Shown: piece after piece, positions 4,944 through 60,815 of the stretch
How the letters are laid out: each line of letters begins with the position of its first letter
How positions within the stretch are numbered: the stretch's first letter is position 1
From: an uncultured Prevotella sp.
GTDB taxonomy: Bacteria > Bacteroidota > Bacteroidia > Bacteroidales > Bacteroidaceae
Assembly (NCBI GenBank): GCA_900550635.1
Contig: URSZ01000001.1
Location: forward strand, 1-61,107
Direction: 5' to 3'
DNA: 61,107 nucleotides
Notes under the pieces: generated by a model
What the model was told of the DNA's origin: nothing
The model's input: the letters and a program-made list of their open reading frames with translations, nothing else
Database searches by the model: none
Translations under genes and position numbers: made by a program

Positions 4944-5060
4944 GCTTCTTGAAAAGTTTCACGGGACGTAAAAAAATTATCTCTGAGATATTTCAAAATA
5001 TGTCTGACATATTTTAAAATACGTCAGACATATTTTCTGCCGCCTCCAACAGGCAGAAGA
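4944..5060. repeat. Mosaic intergenic repeat, copy 1 (reduced copy; flanks poorly conserved)
   Basis: The core is three 21-bp units at about 4972-5036: AAAATTATCTCTGAGATATTTC / AAAATATGTCTGACATATTTT / AAAATACGTCAGACATATTTT. It lies between the phosphatase-family gene and argS. Confidence 0.8.
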
Positions 5061-6024: not shown

Positions 6025-6248
6025 TATGTTTTAGTTTCAGGTCTACAGTCGGTTGCCTGCACGGCGCATAACGCACCCGTACTTTGGCGCGGCGCGGGGG
6101 AGCGCCAAAAGTTTCACGAACGTAAATTTATGAAAATAATCCGTAACGCAATGCAATCGTGCCGTATTTTGCAGCTCCGTGCAGCAACATGCCGAAGCCG
6201 CACGGGCAAGGCAGCGCGGCAAGTCCGTAAATGTCTGTTTTCAAAGCC

Positions 6249-6385
6249 GGAAAATGAATACTCATTTTCAGCACGTTACGAACCCTCGGAGAAAATGGAA
6301 AATACAAGGCACATATTTTAAAATATGTGCCTTGTATTTTGAAATAGGTCTGAGATATTTTCGCACGGTTTCCCGACGTTTTCTT
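6249..6385. repeat. Mosaic intergenic repeat, copy 2 (hairpin module on the left)
   Basis: GGAAAATGAATACTCATTTTC hairpin, CCCTCGGAGAAAA box, then three units at about 6299-6361. Units 1 and 2 are exact reverse complements (AAAATACAAGGCACATATTTT / AAAATATGTGCCTTGTATTTT). Confidence 0.85.
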
Positions 6386-10627: not shown

Positions 10628-10757
10628 TTACCCGTTTCGGAGGGGGCGAAAAATATGTCTGAGATATTTTAAAATATGTCAGACATAATTCAAAATATGT
10701 CCGACATATTTTTTATTTGCTCCCAAGGGGGTATAAAAAACTGAATAACAATATTCA
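10628..10757. repeat. Mosaic intergenic repeat, copy 3 (hairpin module on the right)
   Basis: CCCGTTTCGGAGGGGG box, three units at about 10649-10712, then TTATTTGCTCCCAAGGGGG. Confidence 0.85.
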
Positions 10758-10856
10758 CATTCCCGCACCCGAAACAGACATTTCCCCGCCTCTTGACGTG
10801 CACCCGGGAGCACACCTCGCGCCAATGCTCTCCAAGCGCACTAACGTGTCCGGTCT

Positions 10857-16310: not shown

Positions 16311-16455
16311 CCCCTTTGCCGCTGAAAAACAGGCATGTTAGATGTGCGCAAAAAAAGGTCGGACATATTTCGAAATATGTGCCTTGAATTTTAAAATATG
16401 TCCGACTAATTTTTTTCTTTCTCCCACCCCCGTAAAATCGTGTCATTTTGGCGCA
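16311..16455. repeat. Mosaic intergenic repeat, copy 4
   Basis: Three units at about 16351-16413, then TTTCTTTCTCCCACCCCCG and an AAAATCGTGTCATTTT hairpin. Confidence 0.8.
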
Positions 16456-18719: not shown

Positions 18720-18870
18720 CCGGAAAACACAGTTTGCCACCCGGCAAAAAATACGTGCCTTGTATTTCAAAATATGTCCGACATATTTTAAAATATCTCA
18801 GACATATTTTCCGTTTTCTCGGAGAGGCATGTAACTCACTGAAAATCAAGACGCCTTTTTTGTCTGCATA
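18720..18870. repeat. Mosaic intergenic repeat, copy 5
   Basis: Three units at about 18746-18810, then TTTCTCGGAGAGG, CACTGAAAATCAAG and the edge box CCTTTTTTGTCTGC. Confidence 0.85.
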
Positions 18871-21790: not shown

Positions 21791-21965
21791 CGGAAAACGA
21801 AAACTCATTTTCACTCCGTCGCACTCCTCGGGGAGCAAATAAAAATTATGTCTGAGATATTTTAAAATATGTCAGACATATTTCGAATTATGTCAGACAT
21901 ATTTTTGCCCTCCGGAAACCCGCATGAAAACTCGGGGCACAAAAGCTGCCTTTTTTGTCCGTATA
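21791..21965. repeat. Mosaic intergenic repeat, copy 6
   Basis: CGAAAACTCATTTTCAC hairpin, CTCCTCGGGGAGCAAATAAAAA box, three units at about 21841-21905, GCCCTCCGGAAACCCGCATGAAAAC, and the edge box CCTTTTTTGTCCG. Confidence 0.85.
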
Positions 21966-25630: not shown

Positions 25631-25770
25631 CCAGCCGTTTGAAACGCCCGAAAATATGTCTGACATAATTCGAAATATGTCAGACATATTTTAAATTATC
25701 TCAGAGATATTTTTTCTTTTCTCCCAAGGGGGTAGAAAACTCTCCGATACAACGCGGACAAACACGGACG
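25631..25770. repeat. Mosaic intergenic repeat, copy 7 (may extend left to about 25575)
   Basis: CCAGCCGTTTGAAACGCCCG box, three units at about 25651-25714, TTCTTTTCTCCCAAGGGGG, and the edge box GCGGACAAACACGG. Confidence 0.85.
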
Positions 25771-30636: not shown

Positions 30637-30776
30637 CGTTTTTTGTCTGCCGCCCCGTAAAGGGGGTCAGAGGAAATTAAAATCAGGTCTGAGAAAATTC
30701 AAAATATGTCTGACATATTTCGAAATATGTCAGACATATTTTTGCCCACCCCTAAAAGGGTGTTTTTCAGCGCCCG
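30637..30776. repeat. Mosaic intergenic repeat, copy 8
   Basis: Edge box CGTTTTTTGTCTGCC, three units at about 30679-30743, then TGCCCACCCCTAAAAGGGTG. It lies between convergent genes. Confidence 0.85.
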
Positions 30777-33533: not shown

Positions 33534-33756
33534 GCTCACCGGCAGACAAAAACGGAGCGAAAAACGAAGCGGGAAAACAGCCGCCCGGGGCGCGGAAAAG
33601 TGAAAACTGATTTTCACGCCGTTAAACCCACATGGGAGCAAAGAAAAAATATGTGCCTTGTATTTCGAAATCCGAGCCACTAATTTTAAAAAGCAAGCCA
33701 CTAATTTTTCGCCCCCCGGAAACCCTTTCCGAAACCGCCCCGGAAAGGCCGACAAA
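33534..33756. repeat. Mosaic intergenic repeat, copy 9; left member of the 223-bp direct repeat flanking the R-M cassette
   Basis: Aligned by eye to 36525-36747 (offset 2991). It is identical except for one C/T difference (CCCCGGAAAGG vs CCCTGGAAAGG). The three units are at about 33644-33709. Confidence 0.95.
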
Positions 33757-36524: not shown

Positions 36525-36747
36525 GCTCACCGGCAGACAAAAACGGAGCGAAAAACGAAGCGGGAAAACAGCCGCCCGGGGCGCGGAAAAGTGAAAACTG
36601 ATTTTCACGCCGTTAAACCCACATGGGAGCAAAGAAAAAATATGTGCCTTGTATTTCGAAATCCGAGCCACTAATTTTAAAAAGCAAGCCACTAATTTTT
36701 CGCCCCCCGGAAACCCTTTCCGAAACCGCCCTGGAAAGGCCGACAAA
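36525..36747. repeat. Mosaic intergenic repeat, copy 10; right member of the 223-bp direct repeat flanking the R-M cassette
   Basis: See copy 9. The three units are at about 36635-36700. Confidence 0.95.
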
Positions 36748-39915: not shown

Positions 39916-40149
39916 TGCGGACAAACGCCCGCATTTGTCCGCATTTTCAGGAGCATTTTCAAACGGGTTTTCAGGGGGCAAAAAATATGTCCGACATATT
40001 TTGAAATAGGTCTGACATATTTTAAAATACAAGGCACATATTTTTTCTTTGCTCCCATGTGGGGTAAACGCACTGAAAATCAGTTTTCACTTTTCCGCGC
40101 CCCGAACGGCCGTTTTTCCGCCCCGGTTTTCGCTCCGTTTTTGTCTGCC
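39916..40149. repeat. Mosaic intergenic repeat, copy 11; full-length, same subfamily as copies 9/10 but inverted
   Basis: Left-edge hairpin GCGGACAAACGCCCGCATTTGTCCGC, CAAACGGGTTTTCAGGGGG box, three units at about 39980-40044, TTCTTTGCTCCCATGTGGGG, GTGAAAA-type hairpin, and right-edge box CCGTTTTTGTCTGCC. The reverse complement of the right half is close to 33541-33650. Confidence 0.9.
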
Positions 40150-42830: not shown

Positions 42831-43000
42831 ACACTGAAAAACGAAAACCGTTTTTCGACTTTTTACCCTCCCCTTGAAGCCAAGAAAAAATATGTCTGAG
42901 ATATTTTAAAATATGTCTGACATAATTCGAAATATGTCAGATGTATTTTTTATTTGCTCCCACTCGGGTTAAATATGCAGAAAACCAGTTTTCATTTTCC
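42831..43000. repeat. Mosaic intergenic repeat, copy 12
   Basis: Three units at about 42885-42950, then TTATTTGCTCCCACTCGGG and a GAAAACCAGTTTTC hairpin. Confidence 0.85.
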
Positions 43001-43039
43001 GGCATGAACCTCCCTGCAACTGCCAGGCCCATAAAGCCA

Positions 43040-43077
43040 CCCGCGGGGCAAGCAAATCCTGTTGCTTGCCCCGCGGG
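43040..43077 (-). terminator. Strong hairpin; likely the ancestral terminator of the DUF2795 gene, displaced by the island
   Basis: CCCGCGGGGCAAGCAA-ATCCTG-TTGCTTGCCCCGCGGG, a perfect 16-bp stem. It lies just beyond the left att-like copy of the DUF2795 3' end. Confidence 0.55.
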
Positions 43078-43111
43078 TCGTTTGATTGCTCAAATCTATT
43101 CGGAGAGTGTC

Positions 43112-43131
43112 AATACTCGTCCTCGTTGAAG
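43112..43131. repeat. att-like direct repeat, left (duplicated DUF2795 3' end, encodes FNEDEY-stop on the minus strand)
   Basis: 19 of 20 positions are identical to 46564-46583. Confidence 0.75.
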
Positions 43132-43359
43132 TATGTATTCCTTCGTGGTTATCAATGACATCAGTTAATAATATGTGATTTCGGGGACAGCTATTTCACC
43201 ATGAATGGCAATAAAACGCCATTGTCACTATCTCCTCATCACGTTAATTATCACTCAAATAAGTCTTTCAAAGAACCTATTTATACATGCAAAAGTACAA
43301 AGAAGATGGGTAATCGCAAAGTTTTGTGTTTCCTATTTTGCTGCCTCATAATAAAATCG

Positions 43360-43367
43360 TACCTTTG
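43360..43367 (+). promoter_or_regulatory. -7 promoter box (TAnnTTTG) for the abi gene
   Basis: TACCTTTG lies 70 nt upstream of the ATG at 43437. Confidence 0.45.
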
Positions 43368-43436
43368 CAACAACAGATTCCGCCACGCTTCCCGCAGAAC
43401 AGCGTACCAGGGCGGAACTTTTGCTTTATATAGGTT

Positions 43437-44333
43437 ATGGAATACACAAAACAGCCGATAGATTACCCACAGCAAATCCAAAAGCTGAAAGAACGGGGAT
43501 TGATAATCAAAGACGAAAGACAAGCATTAGAACAACTCCGCATTATTAGCTATTTCCGTTTGGCGAATTACCTGCGACCAATGGAAGAAAATAAGGAAAA
43601 TCATATTTTCAAGCCAAACAGCACATTTGAGAATGCCCTAAACCTTTATTATTTCGACAAAGAACTAAGGGCTTTGATATTTACAGCCATCCAAAGCATT
43701 GAAATAGCCTTACGGACAAAAATCATACATCACGTTTCGTTGAAGTATGGCGCATTTTGGTTTACGGACATTAATCTTTGTACCAACCAACAAATGTTTG
43801 CTGAAAACCTGAACCACATTCAACAGGAATTGCAACGTTCAAAAGAAGATTTCATTTTAGAACACTTCGCAAAATATACAAGTCCGACATTTCCGCCTGT
43901 ATGGAAAACATTGGAAGTCGTTTCTTTCGGTACGCTCTCCAAATTATACTATAATCTGTCAGACAAAGCACTAAAGAAACAGATTGCACAAGATTTGAAT
44001 GTACCACAACATCTTTATTTTGAAAGTTGGATAAAATCCACTACCGTATTACGAAATTGCATTGCTCATCACGCACGTATTTGGAATCGCCGTTTCCCCA
44101 ATATGCCACAACTCCCTAAACGGATGCCGAAAACATGGATAAGCAACACACACCTCCCCATGATGAAACTTTATGCCCAATTATGTTGCATTACCTACTT
44201 GCAGAACAGCATCCACCCTAACAATTCTTTCAAACAAAAGCTGATTGCACTTTTAGAAGCACATCCAAATGTTGATGTAAAAGCGATGGGCTTTCCTACA
44301 AATTGGCGTGAAGAACCCTTGTGGAAAGACTAA
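43437..44333 (+). CDS. Abi_2 (AbiD/AbiF-like) abortive-infection family protein
   Basis: 298 aa. The N-terminus QQIQKLKERGLIIKDERQALEQLRIISYFRLANYLRP and the later AHHARIWNR match the Abi_2 family pattern as I recall it. Confidence 0.8.
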   Translation: MEYTKQPIDYPQQIQKLKERGLIIKDERQALEQLRIISYFRLANYLRPMEENKENHIFKPNSTFENALNLYYFDKELRALIFTAIQSIEIALRTKIIHHVSLKYGAFWFTDINLCTNQQMFAENLNHIQQELQRSKEDFILEHFAKYTSPTFPPVWKTLEVVSFGTLSKLYYNLSDKALKKQIAQDLNVPQHLYFESWIKSTTVLRNCIAHHARIWNRRFPNMPQLPKRMPKTWISNTHLPMMKLYAQLCCITYLQNSIHPNNSFKQKLIALLEAHPNVDVKAMGFPTNWREEPLWKD

Positions 44334-44489
44334 CAAATATTCAAAAATGTTTCTTTGTATAGGCTTGTGAATATATAGAAATACCAATATTTGATGTTTG
44401 TTCTGCAAATCACAATATATCAATAAGTTATGCTATTTTCAAATATTCACTTCTGATTGTTTTTGGATATCTTTATTGATATAGAAAAG

Positions 44490-44519
44490 AAAAGGTTGGC
44501 CGTTGCTGACCAACCTTTT
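44490..44519. terminator. Bidirectional intrinsic terminator between convergent genes
   Basis: AAAAGGTTGG-CCGTTGCTGA-CCAACCTTTT: the stem is flanked by an A-run and a T-run. Confidence 0.65.
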
Positions 44520-44530
44520 GGCATAATTTA

Positions 44531-45052
44531 TTATTTTGTTTTATCAACATAAGGACTGAACGTATATGTCAACAGTTCTCCATTGTTTAGTTCTACCTGA
44601 AATGTCGCTTTCTTTGTTACCTGTAATCTGCGCAAAAGGTCAATAGCATCTTGGTAATCTGCAAGATTAACTGCATTACCTATGGGCCGTTCTGTGTTTA
44701 TAAGGATGTTTTCTCCATCTAACATTAAACTTACAATTGTCATTTTTTCATTGAATGACGGATCTCTTGGATTTTCAGTTTTTGAAGCATCAGCAAGTCT
44801 AAGATACGCCATAGTATGGACATGCGTAGTAACTGCGAATACCAACACAATGGGAATGTTGTTAATCATATGATAATTATCACTATTTATAAATACCCTT
44901 TGTTGATCGTTATTAACAGTAAACCATCCTTTCTGTTTGTAGAAATCTGAAATTTCACTACTATCAACAGTGTTTGAGGTACGGTTGCCACACGCCGTGG
45001 TAAAGACGATAGTCAGTGCTATCATACTTAAGAAGTAAGCAAACTTTTTCAT
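44531..45052 (-). CDS. Hypothetical lipoprotein
   Basis: MKKFAYFLSMIALTIVFTTACGN: a signal peptide plus a lipobox-like Cys. I recognise no family. The ATG at 45052 is preferred to the TTG at 45070. Confidence 0.6.
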   Translation of the reverse strand: MKKFAYFLSMIALTIVFTTACGNRTSNTVDSSEISDFYKQKGWFTVNNDQQRVFINSDNYHMINNIPIVLVFAVTTHVHTMAYLRLADASKTENPRDPSFNEKMTIVSLMLDGENILINTERPIGNAVNLADYQDAIDLLRRLQVTKKATFQVELNNGELLTYTFSPYVDKTK

Positions 45053-45070
45053 CGCAAATGTTATTACCAA

Positions 45071-45313
45071 TTATACACCTTGCTTAATTTTCTCAGCTTT
45101 GATTCCTTTAACGAAAGAAGCCAACTCGTTGACTAAAAATTTTTCTTCTTCTGAAGAATCTTCTGTTGCAGTATGATAGCATTGGGAAATAGTTTCAATG
45201 ATATTTCCACATAGCTCAACTGTAAGCGTAAGATTTTCCTTGCAGAGTCCGTAAAGGCTTTTAATAGCCAATTCTTTCTGTTCTTCCTGTGCCATAATAC
45301 GTTTTTTTAGCAT
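45071..45313 (-). CDS. Hypothetical small acidic protein (80 aa)
   Basis: An ORF directly upstream of, and co-directional with, the lipoprotein gene. I recognise no family. Confidence 0.45.
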   Translation of the reverse strand: MLKKRIMAQEEQKELAIKSLYGLCKENLTLTVELCGNIIETISQCYHTATEDSSEEEKFLVNELASFVKGIKAEKIKQGV

Positions 45314-45665
45314 CTATGGCCCTGCGATGCGGTTTAATACTTACTTTAATATTGGTAGGCATAAAAGAGAAAAGCGAGGCCGTCATTCTGCCTCATCTAC
45401 TGCGTAGGGTTGGACTCCCTGTAATATGGATAAGGAGAACGAACAGCCCCACTTGGATGTATTTCGTGCTGATATACGAATACAAACCAAGAGAGCGTCC
45501 TTCCCACATATTCCGATATTACTTTTGTAAAGTGTCCAATTTTACGCAGTCGGAATAAGCGAAAATGCGCTTTCTTTCAATATGTCTGCACACTATTTGC
45601 TAATAGTGCGTAACAAAGATACGTACTTTCTTTGGAAGAACGCTCAATAATCCAACAAATTAACT

Positions 45666-46399
45666 CTAAAAATCTAATAGGTTGTATGTTTCAAGCAACT
45701 CTTTTTCTCTTATGTCCAAGTATATTTTAGTAACAGACACATAGGAATGATTGAAAAGCTCTGATAACCTCATCAACGCCATATTAGCATTCTCACCTGC
45801 TGACTCAAAAACCTTTCGCCCAAAAGTCTTGCGCATACTATGAGTAGGGAAATGCTCGATTTTAAGATTGTACTTTTTCTTGATTCTCTTAAATAATATA
45901 TTGATTCTTTGTGTTATATACTATTTTTGGGGTAATCCATCAAGAACTGCCTGAACTTATGTAACGGACAGTAAGCATTATCACGAACTGACACGCCGAC
46001 CTTGCCTAACTTGTATTCCTGCTCTATTGTTTCTATGGCATAGTTCACAAAGTCTGTCTTTGCCGATTTGCCGTTTGGTCTACCCTGTACAAATGCCCGA
46101 AGATTATCTATTGTGAGTCTGCTGTTCTTCTGCATGAACTCATAAATCTGTTCGTCTATGGTACGCCGCTTCTGTTCCAACTGATTATTCAATCTTGCAA
46201 TTTGAAGGTGTTTCCTGCTTACGGCTTTGTTGGCCTCATCCCAGTAAGCCTCCTCAATCCAAACACCCGTTTCCGTCCGTGCGTGTTTCGTGCCCATCAC
46301 GTACTCAAGATAGATTGGCAACTTTCCGTTCGTGTCGGGCTTCCTGTCCTTACGCAAATAAAACTTGCCCGTCAGTTTGCTTGCCTTTACTCTTCCCAT
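45666..46399 (-). pseudogene. Tyrosine recombinase (Bacteroidetes-type integrase), internally deleted and frameshifted
   Basis: 45914-46399 encodes only the N-terminal arm-binding and SAM-like part (161 aa, KFYLRKDRKPDTNGKLPIYLEY...). A different frame at 45666 to about 45905 encodes only the C-terminal end (...HFPTHSMRKTFGRKVFE...HSYVSVTKIYLDIREKEL, carrying the box II His/Arg and the catalytic Tyr). The middle of the catalytic domain is missing. Confidence 0.8.
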
Positions 46400-46561
46400 A
46401 ATTTACTATCCGTTTTTTAGGAATATGCGATGCGAAGATAACGATTTTGGGGACAGTTATTATGCCATAAAAGGCGGTAAAACGAGAAAGTGGGGATTTT
46501 TGTTGTCCCCACTTCCGTTGATTTTCAGTCTGTTGTTCAATACTTTACGCCGACTTTCGGC

Positions 46562-46783
46562 TTAATATTCGTCCTCGTTGAAGAGGAAATCTTCTTTTGT
46601 TGGGTAATCCGGCCATACGTCTTCGATGGTTTCGTAGACATCGCCTTCGTCTTCGAGTTCCTGCAGGTTTTCTATCACTTCGAGTGGAGCTCCCGAACGC
46701 ATGGCGTAGTCTATCAGTTCGTCTTTAGTTGCGGGCCAGGGCGCATCTTCAAGTTTCGAGGCTAGTTCTAATGTCCAATACAT
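46562..46783 (-). CDS. DUF2795 domain protein
   Basis: MYWTLELASKLEDAPWPATKDELIDYAMRSGAPLEVIENLQELEDEGDVYETIEDVWPDYPTKEDFLFNEDEY. The ATG at 46783 gives the usual length of about 73 aa. Confidence 0.85.
   Translation of the reverse strand: MYWTLELASKLEDAPWPATKDELIDYAMRSGAPLEVIENLQELEDEGDVYETIEDVWPDYPTKEDFLFNEDEY
46564..46583. repeat. att-like direct repeat, right (inside the intact DUF2795 3' end)
   Basis: See 43112-43131. Confidence 0.75.
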
Positions 46784-47669: not shown

Positions 47670-47747
47670 TAATTTTGTTACGTGTTTTTCATAGTATTAG
47701 ATTTAAGGTTAACATTAAGATTAGGGTTACGGAGGTAACCCTTTTTT
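47670..47747 (+). ncRNA. Candidate orphan small transcript: -7 box, six TTANNN hexamers, intrinsic terminator
   Basis: TAATTTTG at 47670-47677. TTAGAT TTAAGG TTAACA TTAAGA TTAGGG TTACGG at 47697-47732. GGGTTAC-GGAG-GTAACCC followed by TTTTTTATT at 47724-47747. No co-directional CDS is nearby. Confidence 0.3.
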
Positions 47748-47926
47748 ATTTCCGGCCAACCTTATCCCCGTATTTGTGTATCATGACAGGCTGCCGCGCG
47801 GCCGTGCGGACGCAGCGGCAGGGTGGTTTCCATTTCCATAGTTAGGCGCGATAATTTGTTTTTGATACGCGATGAATTTCGTATCCACGAGTGGAAAATT
47901 TGTGTCTTAAAAAGGCGTTTTCCGGT

Positions 47927-48086
47927 GCGGAAAAATGAAAACTGGTTTTCAGCGCATTTATCCCACATGGGAGCAAATAAAAAATACAAGGCACATATTT
48001 CAAAATATGTCTGACCTATTTTAAAATATCTCAGACATATTTTTGCGAGGGTCGAAACGGGGTGTCCGGAATAAAGACAAACAGCG
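47927..48086. repeat. Mosaic intergenic repeat, copy 13
   Basis: ATGAAAACTGGTTTTCA hairpin, TCCCACATGGGAGCAAATAAAAAA box, three units at about 47979-48044, and an edge box AAGACAAACAGCG. Confidence 0.85.
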
Positions 48087-54340: not shown

Positions 54341-54525
54341 TCCCGAAGGCGAAAAAGTGAAAACTAATTTTCAGTGCGTTATACCCCCTTGGGAGAAAAG
54401 AAAAAATACAAGGCACATATTTCAAAATAGGTCTGACATATTTTAAAATATGTCAGACCTATTTTTTACCCCTTGAAAACCCGTTTGAAACTTGCCCCTA
54501 AAGTGCAGACAAATACGGACTCGCG
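54341..54525. repeat. Mosaic intergenic repeat, copy 14 (full-length; hairpin on the left)
   Basis: GTGAAAA-CTAA-TTTTCAG hairpin, CCCCTTGGGAGAAAAGAAAAAA box, three units at about 54400-54466, CCCCTTGAAAACCCGTTTGAAAC, and the edge box GCAGACAAATACGGACTCGCG. Confidence 0.9.
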
Positions 54526-60633: not shown

Positions 60634-60815
60634 CGCGAGTCCGTATTTGTCTGCACTTTTGGGGCAATTTTCAAACGGGTTTTCAGGGGGTAAAAAATAG
60701 GTCTGAGATATTTCAAAATATGTCTGACATATTTTGAAATATGTGCCTTGTGTTTTTTCTTTGCTCCAAAGGGAGTATAACGCACTGAAAATTAGTTTTC
60801 ACTTTTTCCTTCCGA
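60634..60815. repeat. Mosaic intergenic repeat, copy 15; same subfamily as copy 14 but inverted
   Basis: CGCGAGTCCGTATTTGTCTGC edge box, CAAACGGGTTTTCAGGGGG, three units at about 60692-60757, TTCTTTGCTCCAAAGGGAG, and CTGAAAATTAGTTTTCAC. Its reverse complement aligns along the whole length of copy 14. Confidence 0.9.

Follow-up and report, generated by a model that had tools for sequence, protein, structure and literature searches.

A probable remnant of an integrative island carrying an intact Abi_2 gene in the 3′ end of a DUF2795 gene of an uncultured Prevotella

We analyzed a 61,107-nucleotide (nt) stretch of DNA from an uncultured Prevotella sp. (contig URSZ01000001.1, hereafter the window). 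Its positions 43132–46563 are in all likelihood (probability about 0.88) a non-autonomous remnant of an integrative island that lies in the 3′ end of a gene for a DUF2795 protein and holds an intact Abi_2 abortive-infection gene. The feature is of an ordinary kind: a decayed island that left an intact AbiD/F-type gene beside a conserved gene. In the proposed sequence of events, a tyrosine integrase would have recombined the attachment (att) site of the island, attP, with the last ~20 bp of DUF2795. The island would have supplied a synonymous replacement of the gene end together with a new stop codon, displacing the original end and its hairpin by 3.45 kb. Sequence comparison shows the decay that followed: an internal deletion joined the integrase, at residue ~155, to a downstream small tyrosine recombinase, at residue ~113, wrecking both enzymes, and the cargo slot behind the small recombinase was then exchanged by recombination with related elements. 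The remaining payload would be an AbiD/F-type HEPN protein, intact and preceded by a promoter-like motif of its own. The features of the region are as follows (aa, amino acids; ORF, open reading frame; GC, G+C content):

43039–43078, minus strand: native hairpin 3′ of DUF2795 (17 pairs, 12 of them G–C), host DNA displaced 3.45 kb by the island
43110–43131, minus strand: distal att copy (attL-type junction), CTTCAACGAGGACGAGTATTGA, which reads FNEDEY-stop and duplicates the DUF2795 3′ end away from the gene
43177–43195, minus strand: candidate arm-type integrase-binding site on the P′ side, AATAGCTGTCCCCGAAATC, matching 46443–46461 at 17 of 19 positions
43360–43367, plus strand: promoter-like motif, TACCTTTG, matching the Bacteroidetes −7 consensus TAnnTTTG
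43437–44333, plus strand: intact Abi_2 (AbiD/AbiF-type) abortive-infection gene, 298 aa (Pfam PF07751, 1.2e-54)
44441–44519, minus strand: distal boundary of the cargo slot, formed by block D2 (44441–44470) and hairpin/terminator D1 (44485–44519)
44531–45052, minus strand: cargo gene 2, a 173-aa predicted lipoprotein with a signal peptide and Cys21 (GC 35.1%)
45071–45295, minus strand: cargo gene 1, a 74-aa ORF (GC 35.6%) with no family match in Pfam, NCBIfam or PHROG
45307–45665, minus strand: conserved leader of ~340 nt between small recombinase and cargo, in the same orientation in 73/73 scorable copies
45666–45920, minus strand: C-terminal fragment (residues 113–196 and stop) of a separate 196-aa tyrosine recombinase, 82–85% identical by tblastn to the intact ones of L017 and L010; the recombinase fragments together occupy 45669–46399
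45938–46399, minus strand: N-terminal fragment (residues 1–155) of the island's own ~440-aa tyrosine integrase (Pfam Arm-DNA-bind_5, 2.1e-16)
46443–46514, minus strand: P-arm region, with arm-type motif AATAACTGTCCCCAAAATC (46443–46461) and an island-supplied hairpin (46488–46514) followed by UUUCUCGUUUU
46562–46583, minus strand: gene-proximal att copy (attR-type junction), CTTCAACGAGGACGAATATTAA, the current DUF2795 end
46562–46783, minus strand: intact DUF2795 gene, 73 aa, the integration target (Pfam PF11387, 4.8e-18)

Here and below, L-numbers denote loci or contigs of public assemblies and metagenomes, and P-numbers denote proteins of relatives. The block is bounded by a 20-nt direct repeat whose copies, at 43112–43131 (AATACTCGTCCTCGTTGAAG) and 46564–46583 (AATATTCGTCCTCGTTGAAG), lie 3,452 bp apart, start to start, and agree at 19/20 positions. 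With up to three mismatches allowed, the window contains just these two matches, where chance would give 0.01. The minus strand of both copies encodes FNEDEY followed by a stop codon, TGA on the left and TAA on the right. On the left, the displaced copy (GACGAGTATTGA) exactly matches the chromosomal attachment site (attB) of two contigs that lack the island (L007 and L009), and the right copy, which now ends DUF2795, departs from it by a wobble base of island type and in its stop codon (GACGAATATTAA). At 37.8%, the GC of 43132–46563 lies below the 53.4% of the remaining window. It is the lowest-GC 3.4-kb stretch of the window, the lowest value of any island-sized window outside it being 46.1%. 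Direct repeats duplicating the att core and a GC deviating from that of the surrounding DNA are both hallmarks of integrative genomic islands.

A third hallmark, relatives that lack the island and keep a single core copy with precise junctions, was found among contigs of the same species. These were retrieved by exact look-up of the DUF2795 protein in public assemblies (819 collection blocks hold a protein identical to that of the window), and their flanks are 97–99% identical to the window. The site was either empty or occupied by the window's island, by a variant with a different cassette, or by other islands; at least three further island types were seen, three of which (A, composite A and C) have intact integrases:

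L002, L004, L007, L008, L009: empty site as predicted by the insertion model
L005: B variant, with the window's skeleton and a different cassette
L001, L010: island type A, with an intact 451-aa integrase and a 24-nt repeat
L003: composite type A, a type A island plus an inverted copy of the window's remnant
L006: island type C, with an intact 452-aa integrase, a Mob_Pre relaxase, a DUF3987 primase-like gene and a type I restriction system

In the five empty sites the DUF2795 stop codon runs straight into GACACTCTCC / GACACTCTCCGAATAG..., after which come the hairpin, a dispersed repeat and then priA in convergent orientation. When 43132–46583 was deleted in silico, the product matched L004 from end to end (949 bp, 99.2% identity) and kept one repeat copy. 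The initial annotation of this DNA, made from its letters alone, had proposed an integrase-mediated insertion that regenerates the coding end of DUF2795, pointing to the 20-bp repeat, the AT-richness of the block and a hairpin at 43040–43077 taken to be native to the gene. It had also named the empty-site junction as the place to look, and its lack in relatives without the island, or an AT-rich block ancestral to the family, as results that would speak against insertion. The repeat, the composition and the insertion all held up; the junction was found in the five contigs, where the hairpin begins 32 nt past the stop codon, so that the first of these contrary results did not arise. The same annotation regarded the Abi gene as fixed in the chromosome. 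This did not survive the comparison: because the site is polymorphic among same-species contigs, the gene is immobilised rather than fixed. The exact Abi protein of the window was found on 13 contigs only, every one of them with the gene at this site. In L003 (14482–15776, compared with L010), a window-type remnant with its att core copy lies inverted ~5.5 kb inside an intact-integrase type A island, the distal part of which is inverted relative to L010. This arrangement suggests a nested insertion that later underwent inversion, or else an error of assembly.

The 87-nt stretch that contains the native hairpin folds at −43.9 kcal/mol (z = −6.1 versus shuffled sequence), and the displaced hairpin is probably the terminator of DUF2795. 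The island brings new hairpins downstream of the gene, at 46549–46561 and 46488–46514, so that UUUCUCGUUUU and the latter hairpin now follow DUF2795. Within the candidate arm-type sites, the octamer GGGGACAG occurs once on each side and nowhere else in the window. The arm motif is conserved in L005, L011 and L113, the last of which is a relative with an intact integrase. The predicted attP junction of the excised island would read ...TGTCCCCAAAAT...core...TGTCCCCGAAAT...

Next to the right repeat, the initial annotation had placed the remnant of one integrase. This is correct for its N-terminal 155 residues, but the remainder belongs to another enzyme, and the remnant is a fusion of fragments of two different recombinase genes by one deletion. 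The open frame of the integrase fragment continues to 45914, giving a 161-aa ORF (45914–46399, minus strand) that aligns only to residues 1–156 of integrases of 430–450 aa. By tblastn, the C-terminal fragment of the small recombinase lies in a different frame and meets the integrase fragment at 45920–45938. The small recombinase has lost its first catalytic Arg and its Lys, and the large integrase its catalytic domain. The intact 196-aa recombinase matches Pfam Phage_integrase at 3.9e-21 (catalytic domain PF00589 only). L005 and L003 share the fusion junction, and the deletion therefore predates the split of these variants and that of the window. Intact homologous integrases occupy the position of the remnant in L001, L003, L006, L010 and L113. 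The nearest intact relative, P0005 (437 aa), is 57% identical to the remnant over residues 1–156 and is encoded ~160 nt downstream of a DUF2795 3′ end on L113, a contig of 2.6 kb. No intact integrase more than 57% identical to the remnant was found among 1.84 billion representative proteins, and all closer relatives are also short, truncated at differing points and followed by unrelated tails. A separate copy was seen in L011–L016 (e.g., L011:6914–7692), where a 63%-identical and differently truncated integrase N-terminus lies downstream of a histidine kinase gene. It shares the att core (TTCAACGAGGACGAGTATTAA) and the arm motifs with the window's island, has no DUF2795 upstream and is followed by a Gp49/helix-turn-helix (HTH) toxin–antitoxin-like pair.

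The loss of mobility claimed initially stands only in part: no functional integrase is encoded in cis, but both core sites and the candidate arm-type sites are intact. The island is thus non-autonomous and only presumably immobile. We considered whether it could still move as a satellite, excised and re-integrated in trans by a cognate integrase (with an excisionase). The two att copies, intact and 19/20 identical, would allow this, as would the TGTCCCC(A/G)AAAT motifs, which persist on either side of the core and in intact-integrase relatives, and co-circulating islands with intact integrases use the same attB. Yet the arm-binding region of the co-resident integrase types shares only ~27% identity with that of the remnant, and the islands of these types bear different arm repeats (e.g., TTTGTTTGGACAAAAT in type C), which makes cross-mobilisation by these integrases seem unlikely. 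With the only close relatives of the integrase truncated and the exact Abi allele confined to this one site, we regard continued mobility as improbable. Even less probable is that the 161-aa arm-binding ORF was kept because it functions alone, perhaps by repressing or by keeping competing islands off the shared att site. The ORF is open and 161 aa long in the window, L005 and L003, and the crude ratio of nonsynonymous to synonymous substitution rates (dN/dS) between copies is 0.24–0.37. However, this low ratio rests on 5–14 substitutions, and the block 46560–45721, non-coding DNA included, is ~99% identical among copies, so that we set dN/dS aside as uninformative on selection. Moreover, the distant relatives P0002–P0004 are truncated at different positions with unrelated tails, and the presence of both the remnant and an intact type A island in L003 indicates that the remnant does not bar occupation of the site.

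The explanation we consider least credible is that the block is a variable chromosomal region swapped by homologous recombination through its flanks, with the 20-bp repeat incidental. The cassette inside the island was clearly exchanged in this manner, and the flanking dispersed repeats with a 21-nt period coincide with other breakpoints of strain variation. Against this, the empty sites keep exactly one repeat copy with base-precise junctions, the integrase fragment adjoins the repeat, and the identical junction serves unrelated islands whose intact integrases belong to the same family. Insertion of an island followed by decay thus remains the preferred account, with some observations weighing against it or limiting it. 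Insertion and precise excision mirror each other, so the empty sites give no direction of the event. The host population varies at the wobble positions of the core (GAT/GAC and GAG/GAA), for which reason the exact crossover point cannot be placed. No abiF RNA motif was detected upstream of Abi_2 by Rfam search (E ≤ 10 in 43132–43480, E ≤ 1 across the island), an upstream abiF RNA being not universal in the Abi_2 family. On the decayed-island account, the locus is a routine, documented case of gut Bacteroidales gaining and then domesticating an abortive-infection gene.

The Abi_2 gene was already recognized in the initial annotation, and its identity and integrity are borne out by every profile used. 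The Pfam score is 185.8 bits against a gathering cut-off of 25.6, the PADLOC AbiD model matches residues 2–292, that is, the full length, at 5.9e-78, and PHROG 2158 and PDB entry 8VZ6_A match at 1.1e-56 and 1.4e-64, respectively. A HEPN motif of the Rx4–6H form, RNCIAH, lies at residues 206–211 (nt 44052–44069) and aligns to RNSCCH of 8VZ6. The promoter-like motif TACCTTTG sits 70 nt 5′ of the start codon and is the sole plus-strand instance in 43101–43440 of TAnnTTTG, which we take from Bacteroides promoters to be the Bacteroidetes −7 consensus. The predicted 5′ untranslated region (UTR) also contains a G+C-rich nested hairpin (43377–43420, plus strand; TTCCGCC...GGCGGAA), which is kept in L005 save for two loop changes, has no Rfam match and whose fold is not significant alone (z = −1.5). 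Abi2, AbiD and AbiF proteins have been assigned to the HEPN RNase domains (PMC3710099), and AbiF of Clostridioides difficile is toxic and neutralised by an RNA antitoxin, RCd22, that bears abiF motifs (PMC12373285). The Abi_2 protein of the window would be expected to act as a phage-triggered toxic RNase in abortive infection.

The initial annotation had described the other two intact genes as a convergent module of unknown function. They indeed match no family, but the pair is cargo identical to that of unrelated elements, held in a recognizable slot. The 173-aa lipoprotein has no match in Pfam, NCBIfam, PADLOC or PHROG and nine clusters of homologues. Its AlphaFold model is a β-sandwich (predicted local distance difference test, pLDDT, 64.5) whose best Foldseek matches in the PDB have TM-scores <0.4 and a high root-mean-square deviation, giving no assignment. 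An identical protein is encoded in elements with a large serine recombinase (L017–L024), the 74-aa ORF is 100% identical to the 74-aa gene of L017, and in these unrelated elements the identical pair follows an intact 196-aa recombinase. The two genes possibly have an envelope-related role. Between 45921 and 44441 the window is 94.7% identical to L017-type elements. Relative to L005, it is ~99% identical from 46560 to 45721, then 70–80% identical, then unrelated until 44516. Since the ~99% identity to L005 ends at 45721, the cassette of the window came by recombination inside the small recombinase gene and the leader.

The boundaries of the slot are conserved far beyond this island. On the distal side, D1 consists of a 12-bp stem followed by CTTTTCT (z = −3.8); its 32 nt at 44485–44516 show 100% identity between loci that differ in cargo, at least 12 in number, and whose recombinases diverge by 15% or more, and D2 is 93–100% identical in at least 20 loci. 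On the proximal side, the leader contains a 12-bp inverted repeat (45634–45645 / 45493–45504) and a TAtcTTTG promoter-like motif (45614–45621), and ends in an invariant hairpin, GCATCGCAGGGCCATAGATGC (45310–45330), 15–25 nt 5′ of the start codons of the variable cargo. We surveyed the leader in 80 metagenome loci, and it was undetectable in most of those whose recombinase is less than ~75% identical to the query. Paired positions made up 98.1% of cells in the consensus structure, and 10 pairs (64 cells) showed compensatory changes, compared with 22.6 ± 4.9 cells in shuffles and 4–24 in slid controls; many of the changes were G–U to A–U, specific to the cargo strand. The covariation is suggestive of a structured RNA or DNA, not proof of it, because the structure was derived from the same alignment. 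The leader has no Rfam match. It was also seen in L114–L168, L017, L024, L005, L010 and L001. An inverton was rejected: the inverted repeats GAGCGTTCTTCC and GGAAGGACGCTC flank 129 nt with TAtcTTTG, but 0/73 copies are inverted relative to the recombinase. An integron was likewise discarded, as the recombinase is 196 aa long with only the PF00589 catalytic domain, each locus has one multi-gene slot, and no locus repeats the boundary hairpin.

The 196-aa recombinase family comprises 3,892 clusters, and its cargo takes at least 20 architectures over ~50 loci, mostly lipoproteins and zinc-ribbon membrane proteins. Nine representative cargo proteins of related loci match Zn-ribbon, DUF6175, DUF805 and WG-repeat families and no immunity family. 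A speculative reading, to which we give limited credence, is that the cargo slot is the fossil of a very abundant (~3,900 protein clusters), undescribed kind of Bacteroidales locus made of a 196-aa recombinase, a structured leader and base-precisely joined cargo. At such a locus the cargo would be joined directly after the invariant GCATC-N11-GATGC hairpin and would end at the 100%-conserved distal hairpin. Many mobile elements contain this combination of small recombinase, leader and changing cargo, which may merit its own study.

The DUF2795 3′ end is an attachment site in several Bacteroidales families. The protein is 84–93% identical across Bacteroidota, from Prevotella to Chitinophagaceae (L025–L104), an unusual conservation that fits such use; a scan of genome contigs with the DUF2795 protein of the window returned other species only, at ≤93% identity. 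A homologous integrase lies within 1.5 kb downstream of DUF2795 in 5/80 other-species loci, 66 of the 80 having at least 1.5 kb of downstream sequence. The five loci belong to Prevotella (two), Bacteroides, Muribaculaceae and Rikenellaceae, and the sequence downstream of DUF2795 in a Rikenellaceae metagenome-assembled genome (L103) resembles that of the window. Judged by this likeness, the GC of 53% and the gut origin alone, an Alistipes-like host might be supposed. The site serves a whole clade of tyrosine integrases in Rikenellaceae, Bacteroides, Prevotella and Muribaculaceae. We found no paper in the library searched tying DUF2795 to integration. The DUF2795 3′ end offers a handy landmark when metagenomes are screened for islands and their defence genes and is a candidate neutral landing site for genetic tools.

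Beyond the island, the window contains a dispersed intergenic repeat at ~15 loci, composed of two or three tandem 21-nt palindromic units (AAATATGTCTGACATATTT), often with a conserved ~60-nt tail (TGTATTTTTTATTTGCTCCCA...GAAAACCAGTTTTCATTTT). The repeat lies at 4972–5036, 6246–6361, 10649–10767, 16350–16438, 18763–18810, 21831–21906, 25651–25731, 30670–30743, 39980–40097, 42865–43010, 47926–48065, 54354–54468 and 60691–60805, with tails alone at 33593–33651 and 36584–36642. Its core motif has 56 matches in the window versus 0.86 expected, and the repeat matches no Rfam family. The island–DUF2795 region is enclosed by a 140-nt inverted repeat made of two copies. Repeat edges are also strain breakpoints, at 42870 relative to L111, where a restriction–modification cluster replaces priA, and at 48044 relative to L004 and L105. 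A small RNA (sRNA) of the Bacteroidetes FopS family lies outside the island at 47682–47751 (plus strand; Rfam RF04319, 72.6 bits against a gathering threshold of 56), between a 210-aa gene and a dispersed repeat. No Rfam family was found within the island.

Among known systems, the Bacteroides integrative and mobilizable elements NBU1 and NBU2 insert into the 3′ ends of tRNA genes. The island resembles them in having a tyrosine integrase gene, here truncated, beside an att site whose core repeats the end of the target gene and leaves that gene intact; in being AT-rich relative to its host; and in competing with related elements for one site. It differs in its target, the protein-coding DUF2795 gene rather than a tRNA gene, and the copy in the window has neither mobilisation genes nor an intact integrase. 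The payload resembles the AbiD, AbiD1 and AbiF proteins (Pfam Abi_2; PADLOC AbiD; 8VZ6) in its full-length profile and structure match, its HEPN Rx4H motif and its carriage on a mobile element. In contrast to the AbiF–RCd22 pair of C. difficile, its host belongs to the Bacteroidales and no abiF RNA motif is detectable upstream.

The accessory and defence hotspots of P2/P4 elements and of integrative and conjugative elements (ICEs) are variable slots between conserved flanks. The cargo slot shares with them the conserved flanks (the leader at the proximal end, D1 and D2 at the distal end), the interchangeable cargo and a defence gene, Abi_2, in an adjacent convergent slot. Unlike these hotspots, it has a base-precise proximal boundary after an invariant hairpin and lies beside a dedicated small recombinase.

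The closest described architecture to the cargo slot is rAID-1 (Ross et al. 2019; 10.1101/471110; PMC12247911). Both have a tyrosine recombinase, a conserved sequence directly 3′ of it, co-oriented short low-GC genes that differ between copies, and carriage on mobile elements. With GC values of 35.6% (74-aa ORF) and 35.1% (173-aa lipoprotein), the cargo pair agrees with the rAID-1 definition of at least two co-oriented downstream genes of GC ≤41%. rAID-1 recombinases are defined as XerD-like and >44% identical to BF9343_RS08045, with published E-values of 0 for identical and 1e-100 for 44%-identical proteins; judging from these E-values, they would be longer than the catalytic-domain-only recombinase of 196 aa, which is moreover truncated in the window. 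The accession of P0189 differs from those of the listed rAID recombinases. The rAID-1 definition also calls for immunity cargo, whereas the two cargo proteins of the window have no family match and the cargo of related loci consists of lipoproteins and Zn-ribbon/transmembrane proteins with no recognized immunity families. Finally, the slot is single and multi-gene, not an array with repeated intergenic motifs. Recombinase length and cargo types argue against membership in rAID-1. If the slot is indeed the fossil of a distinct locus, its small recombinase would capture or exchange cargo site-specifically, and the locus would be integron- or rAID-like in function while standing apart from rAID-1 in recombinase as well as cargo.

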